DNA of 61,541 bases, the filler included. It is 9 parts of 9 records of this genome, joined end to end, with 100 filler letters (N's around TTAATTAATTAA, not from the genome) between each part and the next. Parts side by side here need not be neighbours in the genome. Positions count along the whole stretch, not along the records: positions 10,964 to 19,244 come from SRR31147125_73671; 8 more parts are not named here. One strand, given 5' to 3'. Each line of letters begins with the position of its first letter. Positions within the stretch are counted from its first letter, which is position 1. The notes beneath the pieces were generated by a model. The model was not told the origin of the DNA and searched no databases. It saw only the letters and a list, made by a program, of their open reading frames with translations. This document shows positions 5,383 to 55,115 of this stretch, piece by piece. Position numbers and translations under genes: made by a program.

Positions 5383-5482
5383 NNNNNNNNNNNNNNNNNN
5401 NNNNNNNNNNNNNNNNNNNNNNNNNNTTAATTAATTAANNNNNNNNNNNNNNNNNNNNNNNNNNNNNNNNNNNNNNNNNNNN
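5383..5482. other. Artificial contig spacer (first of eight)
   Basis: N-run, TTAATTAATTAA, N-run; repeated at 10864, 19245, 26025, 34645, 40019, 48669 and 55016. Confidence 0.99.
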
Positions 5483-10736: not shown

Positions 10737-10963
10737 TCGCATAATGAATTTCATCTATCGATTGTATTCTTCTTAATTAACTGGAATCTTGTATATTTTT
10801 CTATATTGCGAAGAACGGTGCCCTCGGCTGGCAGAAAGCCGTGGGCTGAAAGAAACTTTCCGGNNNNNNNNNNNNNNNNNNNNNNNNNNNNNNNNNNNNN
10901 NNNNNNNTTAATTAATTAANNNNNNNNNNNNNNNNNNNNNNNNNNNNNNNNNNNNNNNNNNNN

Positions 10964-12294
10964 CCTTTGATGTTCTTTCGTATTGGACACCTGAGGAGCT
11001 CCAAGAACTGGAAGGCACGGGATGTCTGGATCGGTTCAGGGCAGACATCAGGGAAGAAGAGTGCGTACAAGGGGAGATCGGGCCATGGAATGACCCAGGA
11101 GTCAGATTCTTTCGAATGCGCGTGCACCCCATTATTGAAGCACATCGTGATGTCTTTGGAGAGGGCGTCGATGTGCGTGGGGGCGTCCGATCAGATCAGA
11201 GGTTGACGTTGCGGACATTGTTGAACAGAACAGTGCTATGTTTCGTCTAGCCAATGCCCTGGTCATGTCCCGTGCCTTTCGGTGTGTGATCCATCCGTCC
11301 TGAATTCATTCTTATGGTATGCAGCAAACACGGAAAGCCATGCCTCGTCCCTTTGATCGATATGCTCAACAACAGCACAGAAGAGGGCCGTGCTGTTGCT
11401 TCGCTTGAATTTGATGAAGTGACGGGTGATGCTACAGTGGTACGGAAGGGACGGTACGAACCCGCGGGTCGATCCCAACACGAACATACCACACAGACTT
11501 TGATTGGTGATGTGGCACAGGGAGAACAGATCTTCACACTGTATGGACGGCTGGGCAACGCACGTCTGTTGGCTCGCTATGGCTTCGTTGAGGAGGGAAA
11601 TCCGTTTGACTCGGCCCTTCTTCCCACGGATCTTATTCTAGAAGTAGGATGTGGCGTACAAGATGGAGTGGAGGATGATGAGCTTGAACGTCGCTCCGAA
11701 CTGGTGGAAGATTGTGTGATCCCTGCTGACGCGTATCCTGTGACACGGGAAGGCGTGGCGATGGAAGTGATGGCAGCACTTGGTTTCTTTTCTTTGAATG
11801 CTGAGGAGTGCGCTGCCTTCGAGAAGGAAAAGGAAGGAGAAGAAGACATGTGGAGTGCCCTACAACAAGTCGTTCGTGATCGGGCGGCGTGGGAGCGTCG
11901 CCTGGATCGTGCTTTGCTTCTACTTCTTGCTGAACGTCTTACGGTCTTCCCTACATCCCTCGAGGAGGACCGCGCCCTTCTGACCAAGAACAATCTCCCG
12001 CCTCGCGTTCGCATGGCTATTATTGTGCGAATGGGGGAGAAACAAGTACTGGAACAGGCTATTGCCTCGATCCAATCTCGTCATCGGAAGAAAAGGGAAG
12101 GAGAAGGGGCAGGAAGGGAGACGGGTGAGAAGATAAGAAAGGGCGCCAATTTCAAATATTCAAAAAGTGGTCGGGGCCGCTCACTGTTGTTCCCCTCTCC
12201 TTTCCATGGCATCCACCCGTCGTCCAACGAGTGGAGTGGGCCTGACGGCAGAGCAGGAACAGCTCACGAAGCGGCTCAAGCCCGATTTCTATAG
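10964..12294 (+). CDS. Eukaryotic SET-domain lysine methyltransferase (SETD6/Rubisco-LSMT family), 5' partial, spliced; 3' end uncertain
   Basis: Removing GT-AG introns 11173-11228 and 11282-11324 (possibly also 11061-11105) gives WTPEELQELEGT...VMSRAF...LVPLIDMLNNS...GEQIFTLYG..GNARLLARYGF...TSLEED. Confidence 0.85.
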
Positions 12295-15200
12295 TAAGAC
12301 ACTCACGCGCCTCGGTTCGTCCTCCTACACACGTCTGTCTTCACCCACGAAACTTAACCTCCTCCAGGGGGACGCAAGGCACAAAACTTCATGAAGGACC
12401 TTCAAGGAGATGTTGCCGAACGACTTGAGGAAACACAGAAACGACTGGATGAGACTGAGAAAGATCTCATTGTGTCTGCGGGTGCGTTTCAAACTCAAAC
12501 CTCCCCAACACCGACATCATCGTCTCATGTGGCACAGAACTCGGTCAAGCGTTACTAGAGGCCAAGAATGACCTCATTCGAGAGAACGAAGAGCAAAAGG
12601 AAAAGGTCGTCGCTCGCACACGGATTGCATAGTGGTGGTTGGTCTGATGACAGCACAGATTTGTAATCTTGAGAAGGAAAATGCACGCCTGACCACCAAA
12701 TGTCTTCAAACAACGGATCTCGAAACAGAGAACACTTCTATTGCATCGGTCTTTGAAACAATACGATAAGCACTCTACACGGATGACTGATACGCCTCCA
12801 CAGCGATGCAAACTCCTTCAAGGACAACTTCGGTCCTCAGAGATTGCAGTGATCCAACTTCGCGAGGAGATACTCCAACGGTGTGTGTGTGTGTGCGCGC
12901 GCTGAATATCGCTCATTCTTGTATAGGGAGGATGAGATCCAACGACTTTCCACTGAGCTTTGTGGATTTAATGAACTCAAGGCAGAGTCAAAGCTGCTGA
13001 AGCAGGAGGTATGGGACTCTGTGGGGGTATACTGCCTTGGACTCACACGTAGCGCCAGTTGGAAGGCTACAAAACATCCCTGGAAGAGGCTGAAGGGATG
13101 GAAGATGAATTGGTTCACGAGAACAAGAGACGCAAAGCAGAAATCGAGCGCCTCACAAACGAGCTACGGACAGCCACGAGCGATTCGAACTGGGCCACAG
13201 AAGAAGTAAAACGTCTTCACCAGACCATGGAACTTCTTCAACAAATGACGAAGAGTTCAAAACTGCTTGAAAGCGATGTTATTGATGTGCGTGTGGCGTG
13301 GAAACCCACAATCCGTCCATCATCCTCACACAACTCATAATCCAGCTCAAAACACAACTGGATACGGAAAGAACAGCAAAACGAGAGCTTCAAGACCGAA
13401 TCGCGCAACTGGAGAGGGTTCATCGAGAGTTGCAGCACAAGTGGGGGCAAGCCAATGTCTTGTTGGAGAAGGTTGTATTTGATTGCCGTATCGCGTGTCG
13501 CGGAAGCTGACAACACACGCCAGGCCTACGGATCTGTTCCAGAGGATCTTTTCCTGTTGTCACTCTCTTCTCCTACTTCCCCCGAGGCATTTGAAGCTGC
13601 ACATCCCCACTATGCAACTCCAAGTCTTGCAGAAGAGACGGTCGCCTCGGCACAGCGAGATATTGCTATGGAAGCATTAGAAGCGCGAGCAAATGAGGCA
13701 GAAGATGCTTCGGCCTCACTCAAAGCGTCCCTTCGTGAGGCCGAGATACGAGTCGAGTCTCTGATGCAACGATTGCATGAGAGTGAGAATCGAGAGGAAA
13801 ATGCCCGTCAAAGGGCCCAGGAGGCGGAAGAGCAAGCGCGTGTCTTCGAAGCAAAGCTCTTTACCATGGAAGAGGAGGCTGCATCTTCGATTTCCCGACT
13901 TCGCGTTCTGCAACAGTCCGTGGAAGGTCTTTCTCATCAGATCCATGAATCGGAGGCTCGTGAGCGCGAGACAGCGAAGGAACGTGATGCATTGGTGGAG
14001 GAGTGTCGTGTGAAAACGTCAGCGATCGACGAGATGCGAGTAGGATGGCTGGAATCGGAGAAACAACTTGATGCGGCACGACAAAATGAATGCACCGCCA
14101 CAGAAGCTGCACATCAACGCGAGCAGGAGTTACAAGAGGCCCTCCAAGACCAGAGTGCTCGAGCCCGTGATACCATTGCACAACTGACTGCGGCCCAAAA
14201 ACGATTACAAGAAGTGGATACAGAAGTTCGGAGTGCAGGAAGGGCCGCTCGTACTCGAGAAGCTGATCGGAAACAACTTGAAGCCCTGACCGAGCAACTT
14301 CGACAGTCCGATGCTCGTATCGACGGTTTGGAGACACTTCTTCAAGAAACAACGCAGCGTGCACGCACCTCGGAGCGAAATGCGAAGAAACAACAGGAAC
14401 AAGCCGATCACTTCAAGGAAGACCTGTTGGCCGTGGAGACGGCAAACCGTTTGACGGAACGGGAGTTGAGTTCAAAGGAAACACAGTTAAAAAGACAACT
14501 GGAAAGGGGAAAACGTATGGCTGCAAAGCTTAAGAGTGCCGAATCTCGTGTAGCAGAACTTGAGGCGAAGATTCGCACACGAGAGGGAGAGTGGAGGAAG
14601 CGTGACGAACGATCTCGACCGGATGTGAATGCACTCAAGGCAGAAATTGAAGAACTGTCTGCAAGCAAGAAGGTATGTATCGGCTGTCCCATGTATACGC
14701 GTGCACACACACACACCATGTACACATACACAGGCTGTGGAGAATCTTGTCGAACTGAAGGAGGGAGACCTTCGGTGTCGCAATGAAGTCATTGCTTCTC
14801 TCTCTCGTCGCCAGCGGGTACGACGTGATGTCTCGACGTGCACGGCACGAATCTTGACGATTTTTGATGCACAGGATGACGCGGACAAGATTTCCTCTTT
14901 GTTGTCTCGTCTTCGTGCTGTTGAAGAAAGAGATGCCCATCATGGCTCTGCGGATGAGTGGAATCGTGAGATGCAAGCACTTCATGAGGAAGTGGCAACG
15001 CTCAAGGCGGAGCGGATCACGCTAGAGGAGGCCTTGCGAGTTGAACGTCAGGGGGCGATCGCCGCTCGACTGGCACGCGACGAAGCCATTGCAGCACGTC
15101 AATTGCAACCCAAACGGGATGAAATTGCTCTTCTTGAACATGATCTTGCAGCACGAATGCGAGATCTGGATGTCACCGACGAGCGATTGCGGGCCGCTGA

Positions 15201-18200
15201 GGACGAGAACGAGGAGTTGTGCTCTCGTCTCGAGGAAAGCGAGGAACGGGTTCGTGTGCAAGCTTCCGAGATCGAACGTGTGAAGAAGTGTCTGCAAGAA
15301 GCACAGGAACGGAGTGTCGATTATGAAGTGTTCATGAGGGATCTTGAAGCACAAGTCGGCGAAGAAATGGCAGCAGCTACCAAGGCTCGGGAACGAGCCG
15401 GACATCTCGAGGTTTCCTTGACCAACGCCCTCACTCGGCTCAAACAGGAAGAAGAGCATGCTCGATCGCTCGAAGAGCTCATGGTTGAGGAGGGGCACGA
15501 ATCAGAAGTGGAGCGTCTTAGTTATGAACTGGCTGTAGCCGAGCAACGAACGGTGGAATGGCGCACCAAGGCACACGAGGAGACGAATCGAAGACGAGCT
15601 GTGGAACAAGAGAATGTCGCCTTACAGAATCAAGCGCGATCAGCATACGAAGAGGCAGAGCGCCGGGCCGAATATGAAGAAGAGTTGGAGGAAATCCTTC
15701 GTGGCCGTCAGTCCCACCTCGCAGCCAAAGAGGAGCTTATTGCTGCCCAACAAGCGACCATTAGAGATTCAGAAGAGAGGTATGCATATGGGGGTAGGGG
15801 TGGAGTGCGCTGGCTCTGAAATATGGAATTAGATTGCGATCCCGTGATGCGGAACTTCAAGCCAAAGATGAAACAATTGAACGTCATTGTCTTCGAATTC
15901 AATCAACGGAGTCCCGTCTCACGGCCGTGAATGCACGTGCTGACGAAATGGAACGCAAGCTGGTCGAAACCCATGATATTGTCTCAACTAAGGACGAAAC
16001 GAACACCTATCTGAATACCAAGCTTCAAGAGAGCGAATATCAGGTGCGACACGTGAGAGAATCTGCACCTCTGATGTGTTTTATCCATCAGATTGCTCAA
16101 CTCAAGGAGAAGTTGCGTCTAAGCCAACAGAATGTAAGTGATCTTGCGGCTCGTGTGGTGGAGATGGAGCAACACGCACAGCGCATGGCAAAACTGTCCT
16201 CTTCGGAGGAGCAGTGCCACCTTCTGCAAGAGGAACTCAACAAGAAGGTGATTCTCTGCTCTGAATTCCATGGAACCCACTGTATTCACCAGGGAAATAC
16301 ACTGGAGACACTCCGAAACTCGTTGCAAGACCTTGAGAATCGAGCCTTGGAGGCTGAGAATCGATCACGGACCAAGAGTGATATGATCGAAATGCTTCAA
16401 GTGTGTACGGGCGGGCGGGCGGGCGGGCGGGTGTAACGCATCCCCTCGTTTCCAGACGTGGGTCGAGAATGCCGAACAAGAACTCCAGAAACAGGATCGT
16501 GAAATGGGTGATCTCGTTGCTCTTCTTCAGGGAGAAGAAGCCCGAAATGCTTTCAGAAGAGACATGGAACTGTATTCTGGAACGTATGCGGAGTATCGAT
16601 CGCCATTGTGCCACGAAGACTATCCACGATGGAACGTTCCCACTGAATCTGGATTCAACGATGCTCAAACTTCGCGAGTTTGAAGGGGAGGTGTGTTTTG
16701 CAGCTGATTTCAATTCCCAGTCTCTCACTCTTGACCAGCTGGGAGAGAAAAAGGCAGCTCTTGTTGATTACCAGAAGCGTATTCGTGTGCTGGAAGGGCA
16801 AGTGCAACGAAATGTCCAGCAACAGAAGATATACGAAGAGGCGTTAGAAAGTGCAGAGGTTGAAGTGAAGGAGAAGACCGAAGAGAGTCTGCGGTATCGC
16901 AGTGTACGTGTGATGGATCAATTCCAGAGACGAAAGGTGATGTGCCTTTCTCCGCCCCAGGTTCTTCAGATGCACCATATTGAAATCATGGGACCCGGCC
17001 TTGAAGGTGTTGAACTTTCTCCTGACACCCTGGAGGAAGTTCGTGGAGATTCACGTATGAAGAAGATTCTCCTCCTGGGACACCAGGTGAGGTTCTGCTT
17101 TTTTTTTCTTTGTTGTCTGATTTGAATTCTGCAGCTTCAAGAGAGTGAGAAGCAGGTATGCATTCTTAGTGAGAAGATACGGGATCTGGAAGAGGACCTT
17201 TGTTCGAAACTCAAAGAAAATGAGAGGTACATGCACGAGGTTTGTTCCTTTTCGACTCACACGCACCTTGTACAGTCTGAGGGAGAAGGCACGACAAGCA
17301 GAGGAACATCACAGAACAACACATGCCGTTCGTAACTTTATGGATCGAATGAAGGCTCAGACCGTGCGTTCGTTTCTTGGAATGGACGATATCAGTCAGA
17401 CACACATGGTACACAGGCTGAACCTTCGACGACGGATCCTGTGGAAAAAGCAGCAACACTTCGACGCAAACGAAGGGAACGTCTTTCTGTGTTCAACGCC
17501 TTCTCCCCTGCAGAGTATGTGTTGTATCTTGTGCTTGGGCATCTGTGTGTCTGATCAATCGATCCTTCAGACCTCTTGAAGCGCAAAAGGAGAAAGAGGA
17601 AAAAGACGACGACGACGAAGAGACTGTGATGAATGTGGTGAACAGTCCGGGATTCGGGGCTCACCGGCCCTCTCAACCTCCACGACAAAGCGTTGTGGGA
17701 ATCTACACGGAAACCGTTTCCCAAAGTCCCGTATCTTCCTTGCACCAAGCATGCGTGACTTCTCCGGGACCCGTTGTTGTAAATGAGGATGAGGAACAGG
17801 AGGAACAGGAGGAACAGAAGATACGGGAGATTCAACGTCCTGCAAAGCATCGGAAGTCGTGTGTCAAACTCCCTGGTATGAAGAAAAGCAAACGCAAGTC
17901 GGCCGTCCGCTTCTGCGAGAGTGTCGAAGTGGTGCAATGGGAAGAAGAAGAAGAGAAGCAAAAAGAAACTGATAATGCTCCGTGCGTTTTGTGTGTCCTT
18001 CTCGGCCTCCTTCTCTGCCTAACGATCGATCTGCAGGCATGACGCCCTGGACGCGAAAAAGGAAGAGCTTCTGCACACTCTTCGTGAACTCCTTCCTTCT
18101 ATGGATGCCGGGAGGTCGCCTCCTCCCACTCCCACGGAGAAGAAGAAGAAGAAGAAGAGGAAGGAGACGGCACCCCCAACAAAGGTGAATCGCTCCGCGA

Positions 18201-18340
18201 ACACGGAAAACAAGCAAGGTACACAGAACAAATCGACTCGATCCCCTTCGGCACGAAAGAGGCCGCCTCTTGGCGGGTTAGCCCTGGCACAAATGCAACG
18301 GATCGAAGCACGACTGGATCGATTCAACAAATTACCCTGA
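12206..18340 (+). CDS. Eukaryotic multi-exon giant coiled-coil protein, candidate dynein activating adaptor
   Basis: About 20 short GT-AG introns (e.g. 12294-12367, 12482-12537, 12606-12658, 12749-12803, 12881-12926, 13009-13058, 13287-13345, 13472-13523) join E/Q/R/L-rich heptad exons in frame; TGA at 18338-18340; one probable indel near 16530. Confidence 0.8.
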
Positions 18341-18393
18341 TCCCACAACTCCCCTTTCACTGGATGAAGAGGCAGTGTACACGATAAAATCCA

Positions 18394-19244
18394 TTATTCA
18401 TGCAACGGAATCATGAAGTCCTTGACCTCTCGAACCAGCATGGAAAGACACAGGGGATCCTTTGCGAACTCCTCAACAAGAACGGGGGTGTGGGAAGGAT
18501 TTGTCGTAACGACTGTAATTCGTCTGCAGCACCGTCCATCTGGGTGAGGGCGAGGAACACACTCGGTTCGCGCTCACCGTGTCGGATTCAAGAAATCGGT
18601 GAAATGCCGATGATATGCGTTCTGTACCGCCTCTGCGTCTACCAAGTCTAGCTGTTGTTCGTATTGGAGTATTTCTTCCATAGAAGAGAAGCCCTGGAGG
18701 ATGTCAGTAACTGAACCAGCCAGCCAACCAACCAACCAACCAGAAGGTGAGCACGTAGTGCACTTCGAATCACATGGGGTGCTGTGGATCGTGCGACATG
18801 AAGAACGTAGAGAAGAGATGCACGAGCCGCATCCATGCTGAGCGGATTGGTGATGTGATCCTCCACACGGCGCAAGATATCGTGGAAGATGGAAAGGGCT
18901 TGACATGGAGAAGACGATTCAAAAAGAGTAAACGAGAGCTGTCCTGTCCAACTGCAGAGATCCACTCGTGCATCATATGCATATCTGTGGCAAATGAATA
19001 TGATAACGAGTGTCGGATGCGCATGCACGCACCCCTTGCCACGAATCTCCTGAAAGATGGGTCCTTCTGAACGACTGAGGATTTCACACAGAAGAAGCAA
19101 GGGGAAGTAGTCCGGATCACCCAACTTCACCCAACACGGGATCGTCTGTTCCAAATACGATGAATCCACTCCTGAAATAGGGACAAGGAAGTTCTTTTCG
19201 CCAGTGGGAAACGTTGGGGCTGGAATGGAGTATTAGAAACAAAA
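18394..19244 (-). CDS. Eukaryotic M16 (insulinase/presequence-protease-like) metallopeptidase C-terminus, spliced, 5' partial
   Basis: EGPIFQEIRGKG|YAY motif restored by splicing; three GT-AG introns; TAA at 18394-18396. Confidence 0.75.
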
Positions 19245-19344
19245 NNNNNNNNNNNNNNNNNNNNNNNNNNNNNNNNNNNNNNNNNNNNTTAATTAATTAA
19301 NNNNNNNNNNNNNNNNNNNNNNNNNNNNNNNNNNNNNNNNNNNN

Positions 19345-26024: not shown

Positions 26025-26219
26025 NNNNNNNNNNNNNNNNNNNNNNNNNNNNNNNNNNNNNNNNNNNNTTAATTAATTAANNNNNNNNNNNNNNNNNNNN
26101 NNNNNNNNNNNNNNNNNNNNNNNNTTTTTCTCTGGGTAACGTAAACGACCACTTTAGGTCAAGCAAAATCATCGCACCAAAAGATATCTATGTCCGTCCA
26201 TAAAAAGGATAGGCACGCG

Positions 26220-34644: not shown

Positions 34645-34744
34645 NNNNNNNNNNNNNNNNNNNNNNNNNNNNNNNNNNNNNNNNNNNNTTAATTAATTAA
34701 NNNNNNNNNNNNNNNNNNNNNNNNNNNNNNNNNNNNNNNNNNNN

Positions 34745-39862: not shown

Positions 39863-40118
39863 TAATGCCTTGCCTTTTTGATAATATATATATTCTGTAA
39901 ATTAATTACGTAAGTTGACAGCTTGCTGATCTGAGAACTTATTTGAGCATAGTCGCAATCCTATGCTAAATTTATTATCCGGTTTTTTTGGAAAAACGCA
40001 ATCAAAAGCAGGGAAAAANNNNNNNNNNNNNNNNNNNNNNNNNNNNNNNNNNNNNNNNNNNNTTAATTAATTAANNNNNNNNNNNNNNNNNNNNNNNNNN
40101 NNNNNNNNNNNNNNNNNN

Positions 40119-48595: not shown

Positions 48596-48768
48596 AGCCG
48601 GATGAAGATAATATGGAGAGCTTACGCTACTCTGTAAAGCTTATATTATATAAAGATACAAAATTTTTNNNNNNNNNNNNNNNNNNNNNNNNNNNNNNNN
48701 NNNNNNNNNNNNTTAATTAATTAANNNNNNNNNNNNNNNNNNNNNNNNNNNNNNNNNNNNNNNNNNNN

Positions 48769-54845: not shown

Positions 54846-55115
54846 TCCGATTTTATAAAATTTGTGGCATTTTCTGATAGACTGCATTGAAGCAATTCTT
54901 TCTTTGTCAGATTTGATGATAAAAAAGATGACCCCTTGGGCGTTCAATTCCCAACTCTTAACCCGGCAGCAGCAGGGCAAGGGGGTCTTCGCTTAATTTC
55001 CGAAGGTCGTCCTGANNNNNNNNNNNNNNNNNNNNNNNNNNNNNNNNNNNNNNNNNNNNTTAATTAATTAANNNNNNNNNNNNNNNNNNNNNNNNNNNNN
55101 NNNNNNNNNNNNNNN

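Follow-up and report, generated by a model that had tools for sequence, protein, structure and literature searches.

A candidate dynein adaptor with an intron-split CC1 box, encoded by a long coiled-coil gene of a microbial eukaryote

The 61,541-nucleotide (nt) stretch of DNA analysed here (the window) contains, at positions 12206-18340 (+), a gene whose product of about 1684 amino acids (aa) is nearly all coiled coil and carries close to its N-terminus a coiled-coil 1 (CC1) box, the module by which one class of dynein adaptors binds the dynein light intermediate chain (LIC). The box is divided by an intron (12482-12537) and is hidden in the unspliced DNA. From its sequence, we regard the protein as a candidate LIC-binding adaptor of the CC1-box class, with a probability of roughly 0.55. 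What is known of dynein activating adaptors comes almost entirely from animals, together with the Hook proteins of fungi, and to our knowledge the coupling of dynein to cargo in other eukaryotes is largely open. An orphan coiled-coil protein of 1684 residues with a CC1 box offers a concrete, expressible adaptor candidate.

The CC1 box and the intron that divides it

The gene model was built by reading the three forward frames and chaining the exons. Reads were taken from two public runs (X1 and X2) of one sample and one study, which contain the contig and may be where the window derives from; neither run is recorded as RNA, and X1 is labelled 'DNA?'. The frame of the gene is open throughout after allowing for a 2-nt indel at 16529, and the apparent frameshift at this point is false, because GG is present behind 16529 in both read sets. 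The features of the gene are as follows.

12206-18340 (+): whole gene, 22 exons and 21 introns, ATG at 12206, TGA at 18338-18340, about 1684 codons
12206-12293 (+): predicted exon 1, residues 1-29 plus one base
12460-12481 (+): 5' part of the CC1 box, K61-A67 (KDLIVSA) plus base 1 of the E68 codon
12482-12537 (+): intron 2, 56 nt, GTGCGT...CAG, splitting the CC1 box within the E68 codon
12538-12575 (+): second half of the CC1 box, the remaining E68 bases and then L69-L80 (LGQALLEAKNDL)
12576-13471 (+): remainder of coiled coil 1, residues 81-291, exons 3-8; introns 13009-13058 and 13287-13345 read-verified
13524-13622 (+): Pro/Ser-rich linker (coil break), residues 292-324
13623-13640 (+): SLAEET, candidate Spindly-like motif, residues 325-330, at the start of the second long helix
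13662-13676 (+): IAMEA, alternative match to JxxE-Phi, residues 338-342
13641-16529 (+): coiled coil 2, residues about 331-1186; introns 14818-14874, 16248-16292 and 16401-16455 read-verified
16529-16530 (+): two-base deletion in the window, a G run being shorter by GG than in X1 and X2
16530-18340 (+): C-terminal 497 residues, with shorter coils, an acidic stretch and Lys/Arg-rich disordered stretches; six introns read-verified

The exon 12368-12481 ends in ...EKDLIVSA plus one base, and the exon 12538-12605 opens with two bases followed by LGQALLEAKNDL. Removal of intron 12482-12537 gives the spliced peptide ETEKDLIVSAELGQALLEAKNDL; a preliminary description of the region had proposed this peptide, split by this intron, and the bases that encode it are present. 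Residues 61-80 constitute the CC1 box of this protein. In the passages of the literature that treat the motif, a CC1 box is defined as AAXXG (10.1101/2022.03.17.482250; PMC11580933). The CC1 box of BICD2 comprises residues 39-53, with A43 at heptad position d and G47 at a; being small, these two residues open a pocket there for the LIC1 helix (PMC7655957, section on the box), and the residue preceding the glycine, Y in BICD2 and I in TRAK2 and HAP1, is described as required for binding (PMC8319186, likewise in part). The single [AS]AxxG of the present protein lies at 66-70 and reads S-A-E-L-G. With the register read by hand, S66 occupies d and G70 occupies a, parallel to A43 and G47 of BICD2, and the pocket positions are kept in kind: A43/A44/Y46/G47/V50/L51, as named in BICD2 and TRAK2, correspond to S66/A67/L69/G70/L73/L74. 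The flank upstream of the box (L55, E59-K60-D61-L62) also matches the pattern of the family, and 7 of 15 positions of the box are the same as in the BICD2 39-53 sequence given in PMC7655957.

Dataset EV1 of van Hooff et al. 2017 (PMC5579357), in the portion used, holds Spindly orthologues of choanoflagellates, Capsaspora, five early-diverging fungi and animals, and a profile was made from the 20-residue boxes of 11 of these orthologues in which a box is recognisable. Branchiostoma (N-terminally truncated), Drosophila, Anopheles, C. elegans, Brugia and Schistosoma (no clear box), the second Allomyces copy (its box is identical to the first) and some further EV1 entries were left out. Residues 61-80 score 32.7 bits on this profile, the members themselves scoring 10.3-39.3 bits when each is left out in turn, and the runner-up among the windows of this protein has only -2.0 bits. 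None of 100,000 composition-preserving shuffles reached 32.7 bits (shuffle maximum, 22.8). The box shares 14 of 20 residues with that of Capsaspora Spindly, 11 of 20 with Batrachochytrium and 6 of 20 with human Spindly. The reading of the region as a CC1 box with S-A in place of A-A, advanced in the preliminary description, is borne out by these scores: S-A occurs in four of the 11 profile boxes (Monosiga, Capsaspora, Allomyces and Batrachochytrium) and S-G in one (Catenaria), and the S-for-A change is, on this comparison, a natural variant. An extended pattern, with the hydrophobic residues after the glycine, was found within the first 150 residues in 0.045% of shuffles; the relaxed [AS]A..G was found there in 6% of shuffles, and anywhere in 51%.

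A second profile was derived from environmental sequences. A degenerate DNA pattern of the box, scanned over metagenome contigs of the Joint Genome Institute, gave 34 loci, 16 of which have a coiled-coil CC1 context and reduce to 8 distinct peptides; the other 18 lie in different contexts, mostly on high-GC (guanine plus cytosine) contigs. A hidden Markov model (HMM) of the 8 environmental open reading frames (ORFs) with a CC1 box gives the spliced protein 30.4 bits (E 5.4e-8; best of 5000 shuffles, 9.4). This HMM is biased, since the box served as the model for the pattern that picked the loci; the Spindly profile does not depend on that pattern. HAP1_N (PF04849; gathering score, 33.9 bits) matches the box region in six of the eight environmental ORFs at E<=1e-3, at profile positions 64-115. 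The unsplit environmental boxes score 13.6-37.7 bits on HAP1_N, and two of the eight pass the gathering score. On the profile evidence, the N-terminal motif is a genuine CC1 box, hidden by an intron, and is homologous to the published CC1 boxes.

The X1 contigs skip at least 15 GT..AG stretches of 43-59 nt on the contig; among the 15 joints listed of 18, 11 are in the gene 12206-18340 and four in the gene upstream, and at least 11 of the 21 introns of the gene are confirmed by spliced X1 contigs. X2 contigs of the same sample read straight through the introns. As X1 skips the introns while X2 retains them, X1 appears to be cDNA-like. The spliced, RNA-like X1 contigs therefore show expression and splicing of the gene in this sample. 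Strong indirect support for the splice 12482-12537 was obtained from a donor and acceptor model trained on the 15 read-verified introns. This intron is predicted with 19.7 bits and takes sixth place among the gene's 944 GT..AG candidates of 40-75 nt; the verified introns, each left out in turn, all score lower (2.2-15.8 bits), and so does its best local rival (11.4 bits). It is also the sole GT/GC..AG intron of 35-109 nt that joins both exon frames without a stop.

Other parts of the model are less firm. Intron 1 (12294-12367; 74 nt, 7.2 bits) exceeds the verified length range of 43-59 nt; if exon 1 is wrong, the start would be M38 and the CC1 box even closer to the N-terminus. Intron 3 (12606-12658) has a poor score (-4.2 bits), and a rival in its place would alter 5-8 residues downstream of the box, while intron 8 may begin 3 nt later, which would add one valine. 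A variant of exon 3 longer by two residues, which aligns E-N-A with Capsaspora Spindly, was dropped, the hand-read heptad register being broken. The read-verified intron 14818-14874 (57 nt) is in frame and stop-free, and an ORF-based caller would add 19 residues there. Short microsatellites are recognized in introns, (GT)n in 12881-12926 and (GGGC)n in 16401-16455, and reads are cut at 12876-12909. Short-intron eukaryotic genes on metagenome contigs can conceal such motifs from ORF- and Pfam-based annotation.

Coil, break and second helix downstream of the box

The region that follows the box has the layout that the preliminary description had outlined, namely LEKENARL, about 220 aa of coiled coil, a Pro/Ser-rich break and SLAEE about 260 aa after the box. 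LEKENARL was found at residues 94-101; the coil from G70 to K291 measures 221 residues; and there is no proline between residues 27 and 296, five prolines being clustered at 297-324. SLAEE is encoded at 13623-13637 (residues 325-329), 259 residues past A67. An AlphaFold2 single-sequence model, made of exon 13524-14672 only (mean predicted local distance difference test (pLDDT) score, 77.8), has residues 292-310 and 318-325 as low-confidence and non-helical, with the linker at pLDDT 43-51 and non-helical save for one 7-residue helix. A long helix begins at L326, and the helices of the model span 326-525, 532-652 and 657-673.

CC1-box adaptors have a coil of about 230-300 residues after the box that ends in a break, and such a coil and break are recognized here. 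Gama et al., in the part that deals with spacing, give a mean of 260 residues from box to motif, with 23/256 (233 aa) for Spindly and 43/336 (293 aa) for BICD2. The distance from box to break in the present protein is about 225 aa and that from box to candidate motif 259 aa, as against the span of 233-293 aa known for Spindly and BICD2, and the spacing claimed earlier therefore lies in the adaptor range. The coil-break-coil layout and its spacing, as read from the sequence and the model, would fit a dynein-dynactin adaptor.

The C-terminal 497 residues have no recognisable domain in the Pfam search of exon pieces and no CaaX in a motif check. Their last part (17572-18337, residues about 1448-1684) contains an acidic run, the Lys/Arg clusters K6RK and RRKRRER, and a KSAVRF stretch. 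The two clusters look like what we take to be nuclear-localisation signals, and KSAVRF loosely recalls, on our assumption, the RVxF docking site for phosphatase-1.

A proposed LIC-binding adaptor and competing explanations

The reading that we favour is that the gene, from an unsampled microbial eukaryote, encodes a dynein adaptor of the CC1-box class that forms a coiled-coil dimer. Its N-terminal box (61-80) would set the small residues S66 and G70 in the core of the coiled coil, and the following coil of about 220 residues would run along the Arp1 filament of dynactin as the presumed dynactin-filament-binding segment. Beyond the Pro/Ser linker, p25 at the pointed end would be contacted by the beginning of the second helix (LAEET at 326-330 or IAMEA at 338-342), and the 1350 residues that are left, made up of a long coil and a disordered, basic tail, would hold cargo or serve as a scaffold. 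LIC binding, dynactin binding, motor activation and cargo are all functions that we infer. If the protein is an LIC-binding adaptor of this class, it would perhaps also be a fully activating one, at somewhat less than even odds.

Several results weigh against an adaptor of this kind. The strict AAxxG has no match in the whole protein, and BLOSUM62 comparison with the BICD2 15-mer is not discriminating, the site scoring 28 and ranking second to an unrelated window at 35, so that, by plain similarity, the site resembles the BICD2 box no more than background does. The splicing on which the box depends, for which confirmation by transcript reads had been proposed, is confirmed in X1 for the introns counted above, but the joint over the box-forming intron (12481/12538) is not among the 15 X1 joints listed of 18. 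The score on the environmental HMM carries the bias already mentioned.

The motifs expected downstream add to these points. A preprint (10.64898/2026.04.25.720804), in its section on the motif, updates the Spindly motif to JxxE-Phi, with LAAEI in TRAK1 and HOOK3, LLSEL in BICD2 and IETEL in NIN. L-Phi-x-E-Phi has no match in the protein, though 96% of shuffles have one. LAEET (326-330) agrees with LAAEI at three of five positions; it ends in T, and fails the final hydrophobic position of both L-Phi-x-E-Phi and JxxE-Phi. JxxE-Phi is matched by IAMEA (338-342), but the protein has 10 matches of this kind in all, and IAMEA by itself is therefore not significant. The preliminary description had taken SLAEE as a Spindly-like motif, a claim that does not hold by itself: SL..E is present somewhere in 85% of shuffles, and SLAEE alone is not significant. 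The CC2 box, or first heavy-chain binding site (HBS1), given as Qxx[H/Y] in the relevant part of 10.1101/279398, lies about 30-35 residues after the CC1 box; residues 67 to 373 contain no Qxx[H/Y], with R-L-T-T at the homologous positions. The adaptor architecture proposed for the protein thus stands as far as box, coil, break and spacing are concerned, and falls short in the absent Qxx[H/Y] and the imperfect Spindly motif.

Apart from the CC1 box, moreover, the protein resembles no known adaptor. A HMMER search of the 383-aa exon against 1.84 billion representatives gave no matches at E<=1e-3; of the 8000 candidates scored in a word-index search of the same exon among longer proteins, none had E<=10, and its metagenome scan gave 187 pattern matches and no relatives. 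The word-index search of ORF 12358-12555 returned no candidate, phmmer of the 22-aa exon piece against PDB sequences had no matches at E<=10, and tblastn of the spliced protein against the 34 box-pattern loci found similarity only over residues 42-89, all other high-scoring segment pairs being at E>1. Pfam searches of 13 exon pieces (7 + 6) gave only sub-threshold coiled-coil noise, and HAP1_N and BicD (PF09730) were unmatched on these pieces at E<=10 or E<=1, the box being split between two of them, of 37 and 22 aa. Two other identifications were dropped: a CM1 (centrosomin) motif for LEKENARL had no Pfam match on that exon, and a TPR/Mlp nuclear-basket protein was without Pfam support.

A large structural scaffold that binds LIC, and is carried by dynein or anchors it without activating it (as in spindle-pole, centrosomal, nuclear-envelope and Golgi types), is a rather unlikely explanation. 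It would reconcile a real box with the missing heavy-chain site and the missing proper Spindly motif, and it would suit a very long protein with about 1350 residues past the module; large scaffolds with internal adaptor-like sequences, pericentrin and NuMA, are described in the sources used in part here. These two proteins likewise consist of very long coiled coils, with a short dynein-binding module and a large structural part. However, the present module is at the extreme N-terminus with no Hook domain ahead, and the similarity to NuMA and pericentrin is known by description only. Behind the N-terminal box, moreover, come a coil of suitable length and then a break, as they do in activating adaptors. 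Nor does the missing Qxx[H/Y] decide for a scaffold: according to the part of the preprint (10.64898/2026.04.25.720804) on these contacts, FIP3, NIN and HOOK3 depart from QxxH/Y, so that the motif is not universal and is lacking in some activating adaptors (FIP3, HOOK3), and the pointed-end contact can be dispensable (JIP3).

Orthology with Spindly (SPDL1), the kinetochore dynein adaptor, after strong divergence, is improbable, close as the two are in the box. Spindly of non-animal opisthokonts (Capsaspora, choanoflagellates, chytrids, Allomyces and Coemansia, in the portion of PMC5579357 used) has the same CC1 subtype, including S-A; the box of the present protein is nearest to Spindly boxes, with its 14 of 20 identities to Capsaspora; both have a coil of 230-300 residues up to the break; and the candidate motif sits where the orthologues have their Spindly box, about 260-295 residues after the CC1 box. 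Unlike the orthologues, however, this protein has no Spindly box ([LV][FL]xE[VL][ED]..R), no C-terminal farnesylation box (C-x-x-Q) and no Qxx[HY]. A regular expression that fits the Spindly box of all nine non-animal orthologues compared has no match here, although this motif, in the relevant part of Gama et al., defines the family by its exceptional conservation. All nine of these orthologues end in C-x-x-Q, whereas this protein ends in ...RFNKLP, with its 3' end covered by spliced contigs. Its 1684 aa also compare with about 600-900 aa in the orthologues compared, that is, it is 2-3 times longer, which weighs against the adaptor that we favour as well. In short, with no Spindly box, no CaaX and read-verified 3' exons, the protein is therefore not regarded as a Spindly orthologue.

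Comparison with other adaptors gives a mixed picture. The profile of TRAK1/2, HAP1 and Milton (HAP1_N) covers this kind of CC1 box. The verified Spindly motif of TRAK1, LAAEI, resembles the LAEET found here, while the QxxH of TRAK1 at 163-166 is without counterpart in this protein (both TRAK1 motifs as given in the TRAK1 part of 10.64898/2026.04.25.720804). BICD2 and BICDR1, in the parts of the sources that describe them, likewise have small residues at heptad positions d and a, and a Pro/Ser-rich loop before the motif that opens the next coil; the LLSEL of BICD2 is canonical, and the LAEET here is not.

Chance resemblance in an ordinary long coiled-coil protein unrelated to dynein is about as improbable as Spindly orthology, for although the loose patterns are common among shuffles (SL..E and [AS]A..G at the frequencies given above, JxxE-Phi in 100%), the feature was picked by eye in a very large scan, and the Atlas neighbours of the 383-aa exon are generic coiled-coil families (TPR/Mlp, TMF and HMMR clusters, noise with at most 125 of 256 features shared), the score on the independent Spindly profile that no shuffle reached, the rarity of the extended pattern in the first 150 residues of shuffles and the family pattern of the upstream flank all argue against it.

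As an LIC-binding adaptor of the CC1-box class, the protein is not novel as a class, because CC1-box proteins outside animals are already in a published dataset (PMC5579357); the earlier statement that such adaptors are known mainly from animals needs nuance in this respect, CC1-box Spindly of choanoflagellates, Capsaspora and early fungi being contained in the part of that 2017 dataset used here. What stands out is its size and its orphan status. It might, tentatively and with the balance somewhat against it, be the first member of an unrecognised family of giant dynein adaptors with a CC1 box, in a lineage that is deep, unsampled and probably related to opisthokonts. If this were true, the LIC-binding CC1 module would be older than the animal adaptor families, would have been joined to quite different cargo or scaffold tails, and could function without the canonical heavy-chain site and Spindly motif. 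The value of the finding is limited in that no orthologue was found in the searches given above.

Neighbouring genes and other loci

The window (61.5 kb) consists of separate contigs chained via eight linkers, and the GC content of its pieces ranges from 0.35 to 0.60. Only the piece 10964-19244, which bears the gene described above, looks eukaryotic; the other pieces have densely packed long ORFs and a prokaryotic look.

5383-5482, 10864-10963, 19245-19344, 26025-26124, 34645-34744, 40019-40118, 48669-48768 and 55016-55115: linkers, N44-TTAATTAATTAA-N44

Upstream of the coiled-coil gene, a gene cut at the contig end (10964-12144) encodes a SET-type methyltransferase with a Rubis-subs-bind (Rubisco-LSMT substrate-binding) domain (Pfam E 6.6e-15) and has at least four read-verified introns. 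Among named sequences, it is matched best in three Mucor species (31-34% identity), with a beetle and Mortierella next. The Mucor-like SET gene, the Capsaspora-like box and the short fungal-style introns together hint that the host may belong to an opisthokont-related lineage. On the other side, a convergent gene fragment (18648-19232, -), cut by the contig end, shows a weak match to Peptidase_M16_C that stays below threshold (E 0.0087; 16.4 bits, cut-off 23).

Among the 34 metagenome loci, five (L005, L007, L011, L027 and L031) are on eukaryotic contigs with a GC of 0.24-0.26 and carry single-exon ORFs of 735-745+ aa. In these ORFs a CC1 box at the N-terminus (HAP1_N E 2e-6 to 3e-6) precedes a Ser/Pro-rich insert, an L-Y-x-E-L motif follows about 400 residues later, and the ORFs may represent unannotated dynein adaptors of an anaerobic fungus or protist. 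The ORF of L029 (1-1302, -) has no HAP1_N match in Pfam; it has a CC1 box at its start and G-S-L-F-A-E-L about 375 residues on, the classic layout of box plus Spindly motif. Nine loci (L002, L004, L009, L019, L021, L024, L028, L030 and L032) are on contigs with a GC of 0.65-0.68 and share a near-identical context that is not coiled coil. They are chance matches to the box pattern, and this context looks like an alternative frame of a conserved bacterial gene.

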